Of a DNA stretch of 64,000 bases, positions 1,099 to 25,121 are shown piece by piece (within the stretch, counting starts at the first letter, position 1; each line of letters opens with the position of its first letter). The DNA comes from Escherichia coli (GTDB taxonomy: Bacteria > Pseudomonadota > Gammaproteobacteria > Enterobacterales > Enterobacteriaceae). The stretch is taken from the NCBI RefSeq assembly GCF_003991155.1, contig NZ_CP031293.1; one strand, 5' to 3'. The notes beneath the pieces were generated by a model. It was not told the DNA's origin, did not search any database, and saw only the letters and a list, made by a program, of their open reading frames with translations. A program made the translations under genes and the position numbers.

Positions 1099-3095
1099 AT
1101 TCACTACGTCCGGAATTATTAGAACTCACGCCGCAGGCCCTGACGGCGTTAAGCAATGCCGGTTTTGTTAAGCGCAGTCTTAAGGAACTGGAAAATGGCA
1201 ACGTCCCGGAAATCAGCCATGAGAACGGCGCTTTAATCGCCACCTTCAGTGACGGTGTCCGTACCCAACTGGCGAGCGGTCAGGCACTGAAAGAGGCTCA
1301 GTGCAGCTGCGGGGCCAACGGCATGTGCCGCCATCGCGTGATGCTGGTTTTAAGTTATCAGCGACTTTGCGCCACCACCCAGCCTACGGAAAAAGAAGAA
1401 GAGTGGGATCCGGCAATCTGGCTGGAAGAACTGGCTACCCTGCCCGATGCCACCCGCAAACGCGCACAGACACTGGTCGCTAAAGGCATCACCATTGAGT
1501 TGTTCTGTACGCCGGGCGAAATTCCCTCTGCCCGCTTACCGATGAGCGATGTACGTTTTTATTCCCGCAGCAGCATTCGTTTCGCACGCTGTGATTGTAT
1601 TGAAGGCACGCTGTGTGAACACGTAGCACTGGCTGTGCAGGCCTTCGTCGAGGCCAAAACTCAGCAAGCGGAATTTACTCATTTAATCTGGCAGATGCGC
1701 AGCGAACACGTCACATCATCTGACGATCCGTTTGCCAACGATGAGGGCGACGCGTGTCGTCAATATGTTCAGCAATTAAGCCAGGCGTTATGGCTTGGCG
1801 GCATCAGCCAGCCGCTTATTCATTACGAGGCTGCTTTCAGCCGCGCGCAGCAAGCGGCGGAACGCTGCAACTGGCGCTGGGTAAGTGAATCACTACGACA
1901 GCTACGGGCAAGCGTTGATGCCTTCCACGCCCGCGCCAGTCACTATCATGCCGGAGAATGCTTACGTCAGCTTGCGGCATTAAACAGTCGATTAAATTGC
2001 GCACAAGAGATGGCGCGGCGCGACAGTGTTGGTGAAGTTCCTCCTGTGCCGTGGCGCACGGTCGTTGGCGCTGGCATTGCCGGAGAAGCAAAGCTTGATC
2101 ATCTGCGGCTGGTGTCTTTAGGTATGCGTTGCTGGCAGGATATTGAACAGTATGGTTTACGCATCTGGTTCACCGATCCCGACACCGGCAGTATTTTGCA
2201 CCTTTCGCGTAGTTGGCCGAGAAGCGAACAAGAAAACGCTCCCGCGGCAAAACGTCGGCTGTTTAGTTTTCAGGCTGGCGCACTGGCAGGTGGGCAAATT
2301 GTTTCACAAGCAGCGCGTCGCAGTGCCGAAGGCGAACTGCTGTTCGCGACCCGTAACCGCTTGAGTAGTGTTGTGCCGCTGTCGCCAGATGCCTGGCAAA
2401 TGTTGAGCGCGCCGTTGCGCCAGCCGGGCATTGTGGCTTTGCGGGAATATTTACGCCAGCGTCCCCCCGCCTGCATACGGCCTCTTAATCAGGTGGATAA
2501 CTTATTTATTCTGCCGGTCGCTGAGTGTATTTCACTCGGTTGGGATAGCAGCCGCCAGACGCTGGATGCGGAGGTAATCAGCGGCGAAGGTGAAGATAAC
2601 GTGCTGACATTATCCCTACCAGCCTCTGCCTGTTCGCCCTTTGCTGTTGAACGCATGGCAGCTCTGTTACAACAAACAGAGGACCCCGTGAGTCTGGTTT
2701 CTGGCTTTGTCAGCTTTGTAGAGGGGCAATTGACACTGGAACCACGGGTGATGATGACAAAAACCCGCGCCTGGGCGCTGGACGCAGAAACTGCGCCTGT
2801 GGCACCGCTACCTTCTGCCAGCGTTCTGCCTGTGCCGTCTACCGCTCATCAGTTGCTGATGCGCTGCCAGGCGTTACTTATTCAACTGCTCCATAACGGC
2901 TGGCGCTATCAGGAACAGAGTGCTATTGGTCAGGCAGAGTTGCTGGCGAATGACCTCACCGCGGTGGGTTTTTATCGGCTGGCACATGTGTTGGCACAAT
3001 TTCGTAATACAGAAAGCGAGGCACGGGTAGAAGCAATGAATAACGGTGTTTTGATTTGCGAACAATTATTCCCCATGCTTCAGCAACAAGGATGA
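1095..3095 (+). CDS. yehQ: SWIM zinc-finger protein YehQ
   Basis: 666-aa ORF with two CxC...CxH SWIM-like motifs (CSCGANGMCRH, CDCIEGTLCEH); start translationally coupled to yehP. Exact start uncertain. Confidence 0.8.
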   Translation: MNSLRPELLELTPQALTALSNAGFVKRSLKELENGNVPEISHENGALIATFSDGVRTQLASGQALKEAQCSCGANGMCRHRVMLVLSYQRLCATTQPTEKEEEWDPAIWLEELATLPDATRKRAQTLVAKGITIELFCTPGEIPSARLPMSDVRFYSRSSIRFARCDCIEGTLCEHVALAVQAFVEAKTQQAEFTHLIWQMRSEHVTSSDDPFANDEGDACRQYVQQLSQALWLGGISQPLIHYEAAFSRAQQAAERCNWRWVSESLRQLRASVDAFHARASHYHAGECLRQLAALNSRLNCAQEMARRDSVGEVPPVPWRTVVGAGIAGEAKLDHLRLVSLGMRCWQDIEQYGLRIWFTDPDTGSILHLSRSWPRSEQENAPAAKRRLFSFQAGALAGGQIVSQAARRSAEGELLFATRNRLSSVVPLSPDAWQMLSAPLRQPGIVALREYLRQRPPACIRPLNQVDNLFILPVAECISLGWDSSRQTLDAEVISGEGEDNVLTLSLPASACSPFAVERMAALLQQTEDPVSLVSGFVSFVEGQLTLEPRVMMTKTRAWALDAETAPVAPLPSASVLPVPSTAHQLLMRCQALLIQLLHNGWRYQEQSAIGQAELLANDLTAVGFYRLAHVLAQFRNTESEARVEAMNNGVLICEQLFPMLQQQG

Positions 3096-3219
3096 AATAG
3101 TGCTTTTTACTAAGAGTTCTACTCCAGTTCCGGACTGCTCACGCCACAGTATTAGGCATATCCTATATAGCCCCTGGTGAGAGTCACCAGTTCCTTGATT
3201 AAATAAAATGGAGTTTTAC

Positions 3220-3681
3220 ATGAAGGCTTTCAATAAGCTGTTTTCCCTTGTGGTAGCATCTGTTCTGGTTTTCTCTCTTGCTGGCTGCGGTGACAAAGAA
3301 GAATCGAAGAAATTCAGCGCCAATCTGAACGGCACTGAAATTGCCATTACCTATGTCTACAAAGGTGACAAGGTGCTTAAGCAATCTTCTGAAACCAAAA
3401 TTCAATTTGCCTCCATTGGTGCAACCACCAAAGAAGATGCCGCCAGGACACTTGAGCCGTTAAGCGCCAAATACAAAAACATCGCGGGTGTTGAAGAAAA
3501 ATTAACCTATACCGATACCTACGCGCAGGAAAACGTGACTATTGATATGGAAAAAGTGGATTTTAAAGCCCTGCAGGGTATTTCAGGAATCAACGTTTCT
3601 GCTGAAGATGCCAAAAAAGGTATCACTATGGCGCAAATGGAACTGGTGATGAAAGCCGCTGGTTTTAAAGAAGTGAAATAA
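3220..3681 (+). CDS. yehR: lipoprotein YehR
   Basis: Signal peptide with lipobox LAGC; second in-frame ATG chosen to give 153 aa. Confidence 0.85.
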   Translation: MKAFNKLFSLVVASVLVFSLAGCGDKEESKKFSANLNGTEIAITYVYKGDKVLKQSSETKIQFASIGATTKEDAARTLEPLSAKYKNIAGVEEKLTYTDTYAQENVTIDMEKVDFKALQGISGINVSAEDAKKGITMAQMELVMKAAGFKEVK

Positions 3682-19350: not shown

Positions 19351-20787
19351 TCAGCGTTTGTAACCTCCGCCCAGCGCACCGGTGAGTTGAATGGAGGCAT
19401 CCAGCCACTGCCCTTGCAATAACAGGCCATTGGCCCGCTCACGCAGCGCGGGGATTCTGGCTTCGCTGACGCGGGAACCAGCAATGATGCCCGCGTTAAA
19501 GCGCGCCTGCGCAAGACCTACCACACGCAAGGCATCGTGCTCAATTTGCGCCTGATGCTGGTTTTTCTCCGCCAGTGTCTGAACCTGGCTGGCCGCCCGC
19601 GCCACGTCATTTACCGCTTCAACCACCGCTTTGTTGTAGCTGGCGATAGACAAGTTGCTTTCGGCTTTTGCGATATCGAGATTGGCGTTAAGACGACCAC
19701 TATCGAAAATGGGTAGCGTCAGGCCTGCCGTAACGCCCATTTGCTGCGCGGAATGACGGAACAGATCGCTTAAGTGCAACGCATCCTGTTGCAGAAAGGC
19801 CATCAGGTTGATGTCAGGATAAAATGCCGCTTTTGCCGCATCAATAGTGCTTAACGATGACTCAACGTACCAGTGCGCCGCCTGCAAATCTGCCCGCCGG
19901 GCCAGTAAGGAGTACCCGAGTTCATCAGGAAGCTGACTTGCCACTTTCGGCAACGCGACCGGTTTAAGCTTCAATGACTTTGTCTGGTGGTTGGTGAGCG
20001 CACTTAACCGTGCCTCAATAATTTTCATTTTCCCCGCGACATCGTTGAGCTGCTGCCGGGTTTTGCTGGCATTAATATCGGTTTCCACACCTTCAACTGA
20101 AGAAGTAATCCCGTTCTGATATAGCTGGCGATCGGTCGCGATAATGGTGTTCTGCTCTTTTTCGATTTGCTGCAAGACCGTGTTTAACGCCGCCTGGGTT
20201 TGCCACTCCCAGTACAGGCGGGCTACGCTGCCAGCCAGCAATTGGCAGGTTTGCTCGCGTTCCGCCGCCCGTGCTTTAACCGTACCGAGGCGAGCAGTAA
20301 CCTCCGCCCGATTCTTTCCCCAGATATCGAGATGCCAGCCCGCCGTTAAGCCAAAAGTACCGTTGGTGTACCACGGACCGGTCGTACCTGCGGCAGGATC
20401 GTTCAGAGCAAACGGCCCCATTAACCCTTCTGCAGACATTTTTTGCCGCTCCATATCCGCAGAAAAGTCGATCTGCGGACCATCCTGAGTGGCAACTGCC
20501 TTCGCCTGGGCTTCAGCCAGCTGAATGCGCTGTTCAGCCACCTGCATATCCGGTGCGTTCTGTAGTGCATTGTTAATTAATGAAGTGAGTTGATTATCGT
20601 GATACTCCAGCCACCATTGGCTGTCTGGCCAACCATTTTTCAGCGCCGTGGGTAATGCGGTGTCAACTTGTGCCGCGGGTGTTTGCTGGCTTAACGCCTG
20701 GCGGGTTTCATGCATAGGCGCACACCCGGCCAGCATCAGTAACAGCGGAAAACAGGCGATGGCTGGATAAAAAGAATCACGATTCAT
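19351..20787 (-). CDS. mdtQ: outer-membrane efflux lipoprotein MdtQ (YohG), apparently intact
   Basis: Single 478-aa ORF from MNRDSFYPAIACFPLLLMLAGC (lipobox); OMF/TolC-like. Confidence 0.8.
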   Translation of the reverse strand: MNRDSFYPAIACFPLLLMLAGCAPMHETRQALSQQTPAAQVDTALPTALKNGWPDSQWWLEYHDNQLTSLINNALQNAPDMQVAEQRIQLAEAQAKAVATQDGPQIDFSADMERQKMSAEGLMGPFALNDPAAGTTGPWYTNGTFGLTAGWHLDIWGKNRAEVTARLGTVKARAAEREQTCQLLAGSVARLYWEWQTQAALNTVLQQIEKEQNTIIATDRQLYQNGITSSVEGVETDINASKTRQQLNDVAGKMKIIEARLSALTNHQTKSLKLKPVALPKVASQLPDELGYSLLARRADLQAAHWYVESSLSTIDAAKAAFYPDINLMAFLQQDALHLSDLFRHSAQQMGVTAGLTLPIFDSGRLNANLDIAKAESNLSIASYNKAVVEAVNDVARAASQVQTLAEKNQHQAQIEHDALRVVGLAQARFNAGIIAGSRVSEARIPALRERANGLLLQGQWLDASIQLTGALGGGYKR

Positions 20788-21010
20788 GGGGGAATAATCA
20801 GGTAAGAAAAGGTGCGCGGAGATTACCGTGTGTTGCGATATATTTTTTAGTTTCGCGTGGCAATACATCAGTAGCAATAAAACGACATATCCAGAAAAAT
20901 ATACACTAAGTGAATGATATCTTCCGATTTATCTTAATCGTTTATGGATAACGGCAAAGGGCTTCGTTTTTTCCTATACTTATTCAGCACTCACAAATAA
21001 AGGAACGCCA

Positions 21011-21094
21011 ATGAAAATTATACTCTGGGCTGTATTGATTATTTTCCTGATTGGGCTACTGGTGGTGACTGGCGTATTTAAGATGATATTTTAA
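21011..21094 (+). CDS. yohP: small membrane protein YohP (27 aa)
   Basis: Not in ORF track; ATG at 21011, encodes MKIILWAVLIIFLIGLLVVTGVFKMIF. Confidence 0.75.
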   Translation: MKIILWAVLIIFLIGLLVVTGVFKMIF

Positions 21095-21595
21095 AATTAA
21101 TTAATGTCATCAGGTCCGAAAATAACGAGAATAGTTCAGTCTCTCATCCTGTTGCGCTCCTGTCATGTGCATTGCTTCATATCATCACTGGCGCAAGGAG
21201 CGCGCAGGGGGCGGCCAGTCGCCGTCGCCCCCTGCACCCCCGGGCTCTGGCGAACAAAATCGCCGCTGCGCGGTACCCTCGGCTTATCCCTTGCTGCTAC
21301 CGGGTCGGGCGCGAGGTAACATATATGGACGCTCCCGGAATGCAATGCTTTCTTCAGTTATGTAATAAAACGGGTAGGTGCAGCCATATATCCGGTTTCT
21401 GATGGGATTTTTATCCCGAACCATGATGAAATCCGCCAGGCAGGTACCAATCATCCTCTACGGGCTAACTTGCCCTTGTTACCTCTCGGTGTATCCTGCC
21501 TGCGGTCTTACCTGTTTTGCCATCTTCTGAAGTCACCTGCACCTCCCAGGACGTTAACTTTTTTTCAGCACCTCGTCAGATTGACTGACCTTGTG

Positions 21596-22560
21596 TCAGG
21601 CGAGCTGCCGAGGTTGATATTCAGTATTGTGTGACAACATTGACCACATGATCCTCGCTGTTTTTGCCGCCATGGCGACAACAGCTACATTGTAGTGCTT
21701 CCGCTCAAGGAGTCCCTGAAGCCAGGAATTCTCCTCAACCGCGCCGTTTCGGTTGACCCAGGCGGTAAGTGCGCGTGCGCCGTGAACCAGCAGGTATCGG
21801 AAATATCCATCTCCACGTTTGCTGATCCCTCCCAGTTGCTGTTTCCCGCCGCTGGAATGTTCCTTTGGTGTCAGCCCCAGCCATGAAGCGAACTGCTTTG
21901 CGGTACTGAATTGTCGGGCATTACCCACTGCTGCTACCACATAAGTGGCCGTTAGCATGCCAACCCCCGGGATCTTGGCCATTCTCTGGCAGGCTTCCTG
22001 CGTTCTATACCAGGAGGCCAGAGCTTCTTCTACCTGTTTAACTTGTTCTTCAAGTTCCCGGATATGTTTAGACTGTCTGTAGATGCTGGTTCTGACAAAG
22101 GGAGATAAACCATTTTCGCCATCCTCCAGAATGGCTGGCAGCTCACGTGTTAAATGGCTTTGTCCGGCCGCAATCGTAATACCAAACTCAGCAAGTGTGG
22201 CTCTTAAACTATTGGCACAGGCAATCCGCTCACGGATAAGTATTCCCCGTTCAGTGTGTAACGCTAAAACGGCCTGCTGCTCTTCGGTTTTTATCTGAAC
22301 AAAACGCATATTCGGACGGGTTACCGCTTCGCAGATTGCTTCAGCATCTGCTGCATCCGTCTTGTTCGTTTTCACATAAGGCTTCACATACTGCGGAGGT
22401 ATGAGTTTTACCTCATGACCATAGCGGGTGAATAATCGCGCAAAATAATGACTGGATGAGCAGGCTTCCATGCCAATCAGACAAGGTTCCAGTTGAATCA
22501 CAAACTGAACAAACTTAGCCCGGGTGAGCTTTTTACGCAAAATAGTATGGCCTTCATGAT
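21596..22560 (-). pseudogene. IS110-family transposase, C-terminal ~320 codons (gene split by IS3 insertion)
   Basis: Matches IS1111/IS5075-type transposases (LIGMEACSSSHYF, VKTNKTDAADAEAICEA, LGGISKRGDGYFR). The first 16 residues of the ORF-track entry are read from the IS3 left inverted repeat and are artefactual. Confidence 0.8.
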
Positions 22561-23810
<1,250 letters not shown>

Positions 23811-23818
23811 CCACTACA

Positions 23819-23882
23819 GATCGACACCATGAAGCTGAAAAACGTTCTTTGCCAGGTCGATACCAAGAGTTGATACTTTCAT
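23819..23882 (-). pseudogene. IS110-family transposase, N-terminal 21 codons
   Basis: Minus-strand translation gives MKVSTLGIDLAKNVFQLHGVD, which joins in frame to HEGHTILRKK... once the IS3 and one GAT copy are removed. Confidence 0.75.
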
Positions 23883-24221
23883 GTGGACGCTCCTAATTTT
23901 TCAGGACGTATTGCAACGATCCAGTCTGGTACTTTGATACCGTAAAATCTGGAGCGTCCATCTCATTATCCCTGTAAAACGCGCCCTCAGCCCACATCCA
24001 TGTGGGCTGCCCCGCCCTTCAGGGAACGCCTCGGCGATTTTGACGCCACCAACACCGGTGCGGTTTGTAATTAAAGCGCAAGAACATCTTTAAATGAAAA
24101 CGAATACTCTACTGCTCCTTATGCATAACATTTCCTTTTAATTGCAACTTTACTCGTCCTTCCGCTTTCAGTAGTGTGTCATCGCGCATTTCGACTTCAT
24201 CTTTGCAAGGACTGGGTTTTC

Positions 24222-25121
24222 ATGTTTTCTGGGCTGTTAATCATTCTGGTTCCCCTGATTGTGGGTTACCTCATTCCGCTTCGCCAAAAAGCTGCATTAA
24301 GAGTTATTAATCAGCTATTAAGCTGGATGGTTTACCTTATTCTCTTTTTTATGGGTATCAGTCTGGCGTTTCTCGATAACCTCGCCAGTAACCTGTTGGC
24401 GATTCTGCATTATTCTGCTGTCAGTATTACCGTTATTTTACTGTGTAATATTGCCGCCCTGATGTGGCTGGAGCGCGGCCTGCCATGGCGCAACCACCAT
24501 CATCAAGAAAAACTCCCGTCGCGTATTGCGATGGCGCTGGAGTCGCTAAAACTGTGCGGCGTAGTAGTGATTGGTTTTGCCATTGGCCTGAGTGGACTGG
24601 CTTTCTTACAACATGCGACCGAAGCCAGTGAATACACCTTAATTCTGCTACTTTTCCTCGTCGGTATTCAGTTGCGCAATAATGGCATGACCTTAAAGCA
24701 GATTGTCCTTAATCGCCGGGGAATGATTGTCGCCGTGGTGGTGGTTGCCAGTTCATTAATTGGTGGTTTAATTAACGCCTTTATTCTTGATCTTCCCATC
24801 AATACCGCGCTGGCAATGGCCTCCGGTTTCGGCTGGTATTCTCTTTCCGGTATTTTATTGACCGAATCTTTTGGTCCGGTAATCGGGAGCGCGGCGTTTT
24901 TTAATGATCTGGCCCGTGAGCTGATTGCTATTATGTTGATCCCTGGGCTGATTCGCCGTAGCCGCTCGACTGCACTGGGCTTATGTGGTGCGACGTCGAT
25001 GGATTTCACCCTGCCCGTTCTTCAACGTACTGGCGGGCTGGATATGGTCCCGGCGGCGATTGTTCACGGTTTTATTCTTAGCCTGTTAGTGCCGATCCTC
25101 ATCGCCTTTTTCTCTGCATAA
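24222..25121 (+). CDS. lysO: lysine exporter LysO (YbjE)
   Basis: 299-aa membrane protein from MFSGLLIILVPLIVGYLIPL. Confidence 0.85.
   Translation: MFSGLLIILVPLIVGYLIPLRQKAALRVINQLLSWMVYLILFFMGISLAFLDNLASNLLAILHYSAVSITVILLCNIAALMWLERGLPWRNHHHQEKLPSRIAMALESLKLCGVVVIGFAIGLSGLAFLQHATEASEYTLILLLFLVGIQLRNNGMTLKQIVLNRRGMIVAVVVVASSLIGGLINAFILDLPINTALAMASGFGWYSLSGILLTESFGPVIGSAAFFNDLARELIAIMLIPGLIRRSRSTALGLCGATSMDFTLPVLQRTGGLDMVPAAIVHGFILSLLVPILIAFFSA

Follow-up and report, generated by a model that had tools for sequence, protein, structure and literature searches.

The GC-rich segment downstream of yohP is native E. coli chromosome and forms the left half of a TRIP1/RRS repeat. We are highly confident in the overall reading that this native half with its conserved GC stem was cut by the insertion sequence ISEc81, with recombination between a pair of ISEc81 copies as the probable cause of a 1.3-Mb inversion of the chromosome. 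The repeat itself is an already known element, and the homing of ISEc81 to RRS is the only new angle. The hairpins are native, the limits of the IS are fixed at 21323-23969, and nothing within the GC-rich stretch is new.

A split TRIP1/RRS repeat between yohP and lysO

In the window, the whole 64-kb stretch of DNA analysed here, yohP (21011-21094, + strand) encodes a 27-aa small membrane protein according to its ORF and the RefSeq annotation of an identical locus. Downstream of it the G+C content reaches 81.7% over 60 nt (21190-21249), compared with 28-43% on the yohP side, in line with the initial annotation, which had described a GC-rich stretch unlike its surroundings. This stretch contains hairpin 1 (21204-21235, unstranded), a 10-bp perfect stem GCAGGGGGCG/CGCCCCCTGC. 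The inverted-repeat listing gives its arms at 21204-21213 and 21226-21235, perfectly complementary and separated by 12 nt, and the sequence bears out the 10-bp GC inverted repeat claimed earlier at these positions. The second GC-rich hairpin reported beyond the other IS end exists as well. It had been placed at 23977-23999, about 11 nt off; the arms of hairpin 2 are CAGCCCACAT (23988-23997) and ATGTGGGCTG (24000-24009).

A comparison with K-12, proposed in the initial annotation, was run. In the yohP-dusC spacer of K-12 MG1655 hairpins 1 and 2 lie in one unbroken stretch without an IS, joined as ...GCGAGGTAACAT|CCCTGTAAAACGCGCCC..., and the K-12 aqpZ-lysO spacer holds a second, IS-free copy of the same ~270-bp sequence, 94% identical and with both hairpins. 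Because the hairpins are contiguous and IS-free at two K-12 spacers, both are chromosomal and parts of one repeat. They are thus native in the yohP-dusC and aqpZ-lysO (aqpZ-ybjE) regions. The initial annotation had foreseen that hairpins present in uninterrupted K-12 DNA would be ordinary native terminators; their presence there was confirmed, but instead of ordinary terminators they turn out to be components of a structured repeat that has already been described.

When the IS is removed, the left 178 bp and the right about 94-96 bp of the window repeat align end to end with both K-12 copies. The left half (21145-21322, + strand; TRIP1c, RRS-dusC type) is collinear with the K-12 repeats by its blastn extents and holds hairpin 1. 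The right half (23970-24063, + strand; TRIP1a, RRS-lysO type) includes hairpin 2. The window repeat is therefore a TRIP1c-left/TRIP1a-right hybrid with yohP on its left and lysO (ybjE; 24222-25121, + strand) on its right, and the adjacency of lysO to yohP marks an inversion junction. Compared with shuffled sequences, the repeat minus the IS folds with z = -5.2 and hairpin 2 with z = -4.9. A 71-aa ORF at 21104-21319 was rejected as a coding sequence, since it merely reads through the repeat.

TRIP1 repeats were first listed by Rudd 1999; TRIP1a lies between aqpZ and ybjE (lysO) (Li et al. 2024, PMC10888264) and TRIP1c between yohG (mdtQ) and yohI (dusC). They are 266-273 bp long, have 62-65% G+C and a very stable predicted fold (PMC10888264). 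The window repeat shares the loci, length, G+C and strong predicted fold of TRIP1 and differs in being split by a 2.6-kb composite insertion. Under the name Replication Risk Sequence (RRS), two sequences of 222 bp each have been described near dusC and lysO, ~650 kb from dif (Pham, Wood, Dunbar, Cox, Goodman 2024, PMC11194060). RRS cause lagging-strand gaps on replisome passage and are reported to be single-stranded after replication; at least one copy is conditionally essential, reportedly for chromosome topology (PMC11194060). The window repeat has the same sequence at the same two loci and is distinguished from the published RRS by one base change in the G-quadruplex (G4) 20-mer and by the interruption 80 nt past the G4. 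Neither PMC10888264 nor PMC11194060 mentions an IS insertion inside TRIP1 or RRS.

An exact 21-mer across the insertion site was scanned in species-representative genomes. Only 11 loci were found, in Escherichia species, one Citrobacter and one MAG, in a search by exact matching that misses diverged copies. No Rfam family matched the repeat at E ≤ 1 over 20800-24300, where the only hits were isrC in an IS3-family element and a chance miRNA match. Identity of the repeat with REP/BIME, Box C or ERIC was set aside, the sequences of these families being different.

The asmA-yegH spacer carries a diverged TRIP1-like paralog (~70% identical) outside the five loci of Li et al. 2024. Some strains have this paralog at full length and with ISEc81 inserted in it (local locus coordinates 1225-1500 and 2887-3061). 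The K-12 copy (local 2987-3259) has lost 177 bp between GGGTA repeats, a deletion that takes out precisely the target core of ISEc81 together with the right half.

ISEc81, its target site and a candidate guide RNA

By its sequence features the element that splits the repeat is ISEc81, a member of the IS1111 family within the IS110 superfamily. It spans 21323-23969 (- strand), where a passenger divides it into two pieces (21323-22560 and 23822-23969); with the passenger removed its length is 1386 bp. Rebuilt in this way, it is 100% identical to the uninterrupted ISEc81 that strain WP2-W18-ESBL-08 carries at the same locus. The transposase gene lies on the - strand (start 23881, stop 21596) and encodes 341 aa with the motif GLTPKEHSSG. 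Its product contains PF01548 (DEDD/RuvC-like N-terminal, 3e-15) and PF02371 (Transposase_20 C-terminal, 1e-24), and scores 359 bits against NCBIfam NF033542 (cut-off 140). Of its 341 aa, 4 deviate from the ISEc81 transposase given in a supplement of PMC11187229. Subterminal inverted repeats of 11 bp, ATGGACGCTCC (21325-21335) and GGAGCGTCCAT (23951-23961; both from the inverted-repeat listing, unstranded), leave terminal extensions of 2 and 8 nt. Downstream of tnp lies a non-coding region of 273 nt (21323-21595, - strand), the presumed source of a seekRNA; the non-coding region 5' of the gene has 87 nt.

The IS1111 family was defined by Partridge & Hall 2003 and Siddiquee et al. 2024 by subterminal inverted repeats, a long non-coding region downstream of tnp, a transposase of 330-350 aa and a GL-P----S/TG motif (PMC11187229), and all these features are found in the window element. 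With ISEc81 (ISfinder entry; PMC11187229) it has in common the transposase (337/341 identical) and the 11-bp subterminal inverted repeats with short terminal extensions; the downstream non-coding region, the GL-P----SG motif and single-site insertion without a long duplication are likewise those of ISEc81 and IS1111.

The passenger is an IS3-family element of 1258 bp (22561-23818, + strand), identified from ORFs, annotation and Pfam/NCBIfam matches; its terminal inverted repeats measure 26 nt and its target duplication is GAT. It interrupts the transposase gene at codon ~21 and has thereby inactivated the ISEc81 copy of the window. An uninterrupted ISEc81 occupies the same locus in some strains whose flanks are 100% identical, such as WP2-W18-ESBL-08. 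The Rfam model isrC (RF01387) has a full-length match at 22629-22751 (+ strand; 145 bits versus a gathering score of 39). This match coincides with the start of the IS3-family orfA, and the isrC 'sRNA' family therefore appears to be modelled on an IS leader/orfA. IS1111-family circles are known to form a junction promoter, and the abutted ends of ISEc81 match this pattern. When 21323-21330 and 23962-23969 are joined with one AT, they read GTCCA-TATAAT-GAG, containing a perfect -10 hexamer; the -35 element read from the sequence is weak (TTGCAT, 14-nt spacer).

A core AT dinucleotide (21321-21322, unstranded; second copy at 23968-23969) marks the insertion point. It is single in empty sites (K-12 GAGGTAACAT|CCCTGTAAAA) and present at both junctions in occupied ones. 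In the empty-site comparison the insertion point is AACAT^CCCTG and the IS-free sequence joins exactly at AACAT|CCCTG. About 65 nt at this point (21305-21322 and 23970-24016) are 100% identical between paralogs that are otherwise ~70% identical, and a 7-bp stem, GGGCGCG...CGCGCCC, has the insertion point itself in its loop, 18 nt ahead of hairpin 2.

Of 5,426 complete E. coli genomes, 179 contain ISEc81; its places of insertion add up to 337, with a median of 2 and a maximum of 4 per genome. All 9 loci read have it inserted into a TRIP1-type sequence, each time at the same base. The loci comprise yohP-IS-lysO (four strains plus the window), aqpZ-IS-dusC, yohP-IS-dusC and the asmA-yegH paralog. 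ISEc81 is thus site-specific for TRIP1-type sequence, and its copy number is capped because TRIP1 has only about 2-5 copies per genome.

For four IS1111-family members it has been reported that a seekRNA from the non-coding region determines the target by short matches to both strands, with the top-strand match lying 5' of the bottom-strand match and the two overlapping in the target (PMC11187229). A comparable arrangement is predicted for ISEc81. The non-coding RNA (fold z = -2.8) contains GAGGUAACA (21485-21477), a 9-nt match to the target top strand that reaches the core AT; a 9-nt match touching the core occurs in ~2% of shuffled non-coding regions (p about 0.02). The 5-nt GGAUG (21456-21452), located 20 nt 3' of GAGGUAACA, is predicted to pair with the bottom strand and to span the core. 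In the MFE fold both segments share one internal loop, flank a GGGC/GCCC hairpin and are closed by an 11-bp stem; this predicted target-binding loop extends over 21433-21505 (- strand), its outer stem enclosing all three. It is a reasonable inference from this model that GAGGUAACA and GGAUG are candidate target guides of the ISEc81 RNA.

Several IS110/IS1111-type elements home to one position in a repeated, hairpin-rich host sequence: IS621 and ISPpu9/10 use REP sequences, the IS1111-attC group uses attC, and IS4321/IS5075 use the terminal repeats of Tn21. ISEc81 resembles them in this habit and differs in that its target repeat is TRIP1. Its target GAGGTAACAT^CCCTGTAAAA inside TRIP1/RRS is unlike that of ISEc11 (GTGAAAATACTG) and of the other studied members. 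The target and the subterminal repeat of ISEc81 had no match in the supplements of PMC11187229. The literature found on ISEc81 consisted of mobile-element lists only, with no paper describing its target. Close relatives for guide-target covariation were sought by tblastn of the transposase against plasmids, and almost all matches had ≤52% identity.

For IS that have REP or attC hairpins as their targets, structure-specific targeting has been suggested. ISEc81 might likewise recognise the hairpins themselves, with no RNA-guided reading of the junction bases. The position of the insertion point in the loop of the 7-bp stem just ahead of hairpin 2 and the invariant 65-nt core would fit such a mode, as would the post-replicative single-strandedness reported for RRS (PMC11194060). 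On the other hand, 87 nt separate hairpin 1 from the insertion site, and the flank variant CCTTGTAAGACG is tolerated adjoining ISEc81. Moreover, linear seekRNA matches set the target in four family members (PMC11187229) and ISEc81 has a comparable match. We consider recognition of the hairpins unlikely and favour RNA-guided reading of the junction bases. The initial suggestion that the GC-rich hairpins belong to the target of an IS110-type element was hence right in that the TRIP1/RRS repeat is the target, and probably wrong as regards hairpin 1 itself. In addition to its distance from the insertion, TRIP1b (downstream of putP) has hairpin 1 unaltered although it lacks the central 125 bp including the insertion core, and the RNA complementarity found is confined to the junction bases. 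An involvement of hairpin 1 in target recognition is therefore unlikely.

The conserved stem and the G-quadruplex motif

A lone 10-bp inverted repeat in 64 kb is, by our estimate, not beyond chance, the expectation being ~1 (64,000 positions x ~20 loop sizes / 4^10). The fold of hairpin 1 was marginally better than that of shuffled sequences on the + strand (z = -1.1) and reached z = -2.6 on the - strand. In K-12 the stem measures 12 bp (GCAGGGGGCGGC / GCCGCCCCCTGC), compared with 10 bp plus one G·T pair in the window. Script-based stem searches gave GCAGGGGGAGGA / TCCTCCCCCTGC in E. whittamii, TGCCAGGGTGG / CCACCCTGGCA in the asmA-yegH paralog and GTTAAGGGTGC / GCACCCTTAAC in Citrobacter sp. 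R56. Together with K-12 these are four differing stem sequences from paralogs and species, each forming a perfect stem of 11-12 bp. Because it is conserved with compensatory changes across paralogs and species, hairpin 1 is taken to be real, on compensation evidence from a few sequences, too few for statistics. The stem of hairpin 2 is compensated in Citrobacter, too. Both hairpins are retained by fully compensated base changes in Citrobacter sp. R56 (around 1337-1357 of its locus) and E. whittamii.

The right arm of hairpin 1 and the subsequent C-run coincide with the published RRS G4 20-mer on the opposite strand (21222-21241, - strand). This 20-mer, quoted from PMC11194060, reads GGGGGTGCAGGGGGCGGCGG in K-12, the reverse complement of K-12 CCGCCGCCCCCTGCACCCCC, and GGGGGTGCAGGGGGCGACGG in the window. 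The motif is reported to stop DNA polymerases and to induce lagging-strand gaps (Pham et al. 2024, PMC11194060). The window matches the published 20-mer at 19/20 bases, with GACGG for GGCGG. As a putative G4 motif the variant retains four G-tracts of at least 2. A C>T change at position 21225, relative to K-12 and all other copies read, accounts for both differences, cutting the stem from 12 to 10 bp and altering the published 20-mer from GGCGG to GACGG. In the Citrobacter copy the four-G-tract pattern is absent and the stem is present; in these few sequences conservation of the stem is therefore no weaker than that of the G4 motif, a hint that the conserved feature may be the stem rather than the G-quadruplex.

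The initial annotation had also considered hairpin 1 as the intrinsic transcription terminator of yohP. Indeed, a strong GC stem lies ~110 nt past the yohP stop codon on the coding strand, and no other obvious terminator was seen from yohP to the repeat. Yet the stem is followed by ACCCCCGGGC, with no T-run, and the terminator/promoter scan returned nothing at hairpin 1 or hairpin 2. Measured against a Rho-independent terminator, hairpin 1 provides the stem and a loop of 8-12 nt, ending in the tail ACCCCCGGGC. An identical hairpin sits downstream of aqpZ's own canonical terminator AGGCCTGGCGTAATGTCAGGCCTTTTTTT in the K-12 aqpZ-lysO spacer. The same hairpin is also present after putP and in the asmA-yegH spacer, so that its occurrence follows the repeat, not a gene. 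A terminator function for yohP is thus very improbable. An origin of the hairpins from the IS itself, whether as its termini or as sequence that it carries along, can be dismissed almost entirely: the hairpins flank ISEc81 roughly symmetrically and flanking target bases are needed for excision of IS1111-family elements (PMC11187229), but both hairpins occur in K-12, contiguous at its IS-free loci, and in other Escherichia without any IS, the empty-site sequence joins precisely at AACAT|CCCTG, and the 1386-bp element is 99-100% identical between loci whereas its flanks vary by locus.

Inversion of the terminus region

The adjacency of yohP and lysO means that the segment between the two RRS, with dif and the Ter region in it, has the opposite orientation to that in K-12. 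Previously, 137 TRIP1a-TRIP1c rearrangements were counted and credited to the TRIP1 repeats themselves; 58 of them are ybjE-yohG junctions, and SMS-3-5 with its 1.31-Mb inversion is among the cases (PMC10888264). The junction in the window is of the counted ybjE-yohG hybrid type.

Junctions were counted over 5,426 complete E. coli genomes. The yohP-IS junction was present in 95 genomes, aqpZ-IS in 92, IS-dusC in 93 and IS-lysO in 93. In 84 genomes mdtQ/yohP lay within 3 kb of lysO/hcp, with an IS110-family transposase in 60/60 among the matches listed. An IS-free yohP-TRIP1-lysO junction was found in 0 complete E. coli genomes and an IS-free aqpZ-TRIP1-dusC junction in 1. Nearly every natural TRIP1a/c inversion in complete genomes is accordingly accompanied by ISEc81 at the junction. 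A strain of the window's lineage has the reciprocal junction, aqpZ-TRIP1-left-ISEc81-TRIP1-right-dusC. ISEc81 in TRIP1c without inversion (yohP-IS-dusC) was seen in strains ARL09/232 and Res13-Lact-PER13-34. By difference of the counts, and hence approximately, the occupied non-inverted state amounts to roughly 10 genomes versus 84 inverted. The flank identities fall at 100%, 99.1% and ~98.5%, which points to three lineages or more.

In the mechanism that we propose, the seekRNA would guide ISEc81 to AACAT^CCCTG in both TRIP1a and TRIP1c. The target fixes the orientation of the IS, and the two copies would for this reason be mutually inverted. Recombination between the opposed copies would then invert the 1.3-Mb segment centred on the terminus, which may explain why yohP faces lysO. 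Two identical 1.4-kb IS copies offer a simpler route to inversion than 270-bp repeats at 94% identity, and we infer that an ISEc81 pair caused the inversion. The association of IS and inversion could instead reflect shared ancestry of a few lineages. We also put forward, tentatively and with somewhat more doubt than confidence, that ISEc81 is a dedicated RNA-guided parasite of RRS/TRIP1, and that the natural 1.3-Mb inversions of the terminus credited to TRIP1 are in fact driven by its paired, opposed copies.

RRS is reported to be conditionally essential, yet ~93 sequenced strains, ~1.7% of complete E. coli genomes, have an IS mid-way in both copies. If the parasite reading is true, strains with ISEc81 would be natural RRS-split mutants, and either the G4/hairpin half would be sufficient or a contiguous RRS dispensable. 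By a bolder extension, the single-stranded post-replicative RRS might make the site accessible to the guide RNA. The observation links the literatures on TRIP1, on RRS and on seekRNA-guided IS1111 elements, three fields without mutual citation in this matter, and provides a cheap, testable lead for students of RRS or of bridge/seek-RNA recombinases. At the yohP side of the junction, mdtQ (19351-20877, - strand) is an intact ORF in the window and is annotated as encoding a full-length protein in related strains; in K-12 it is a pseudogene.
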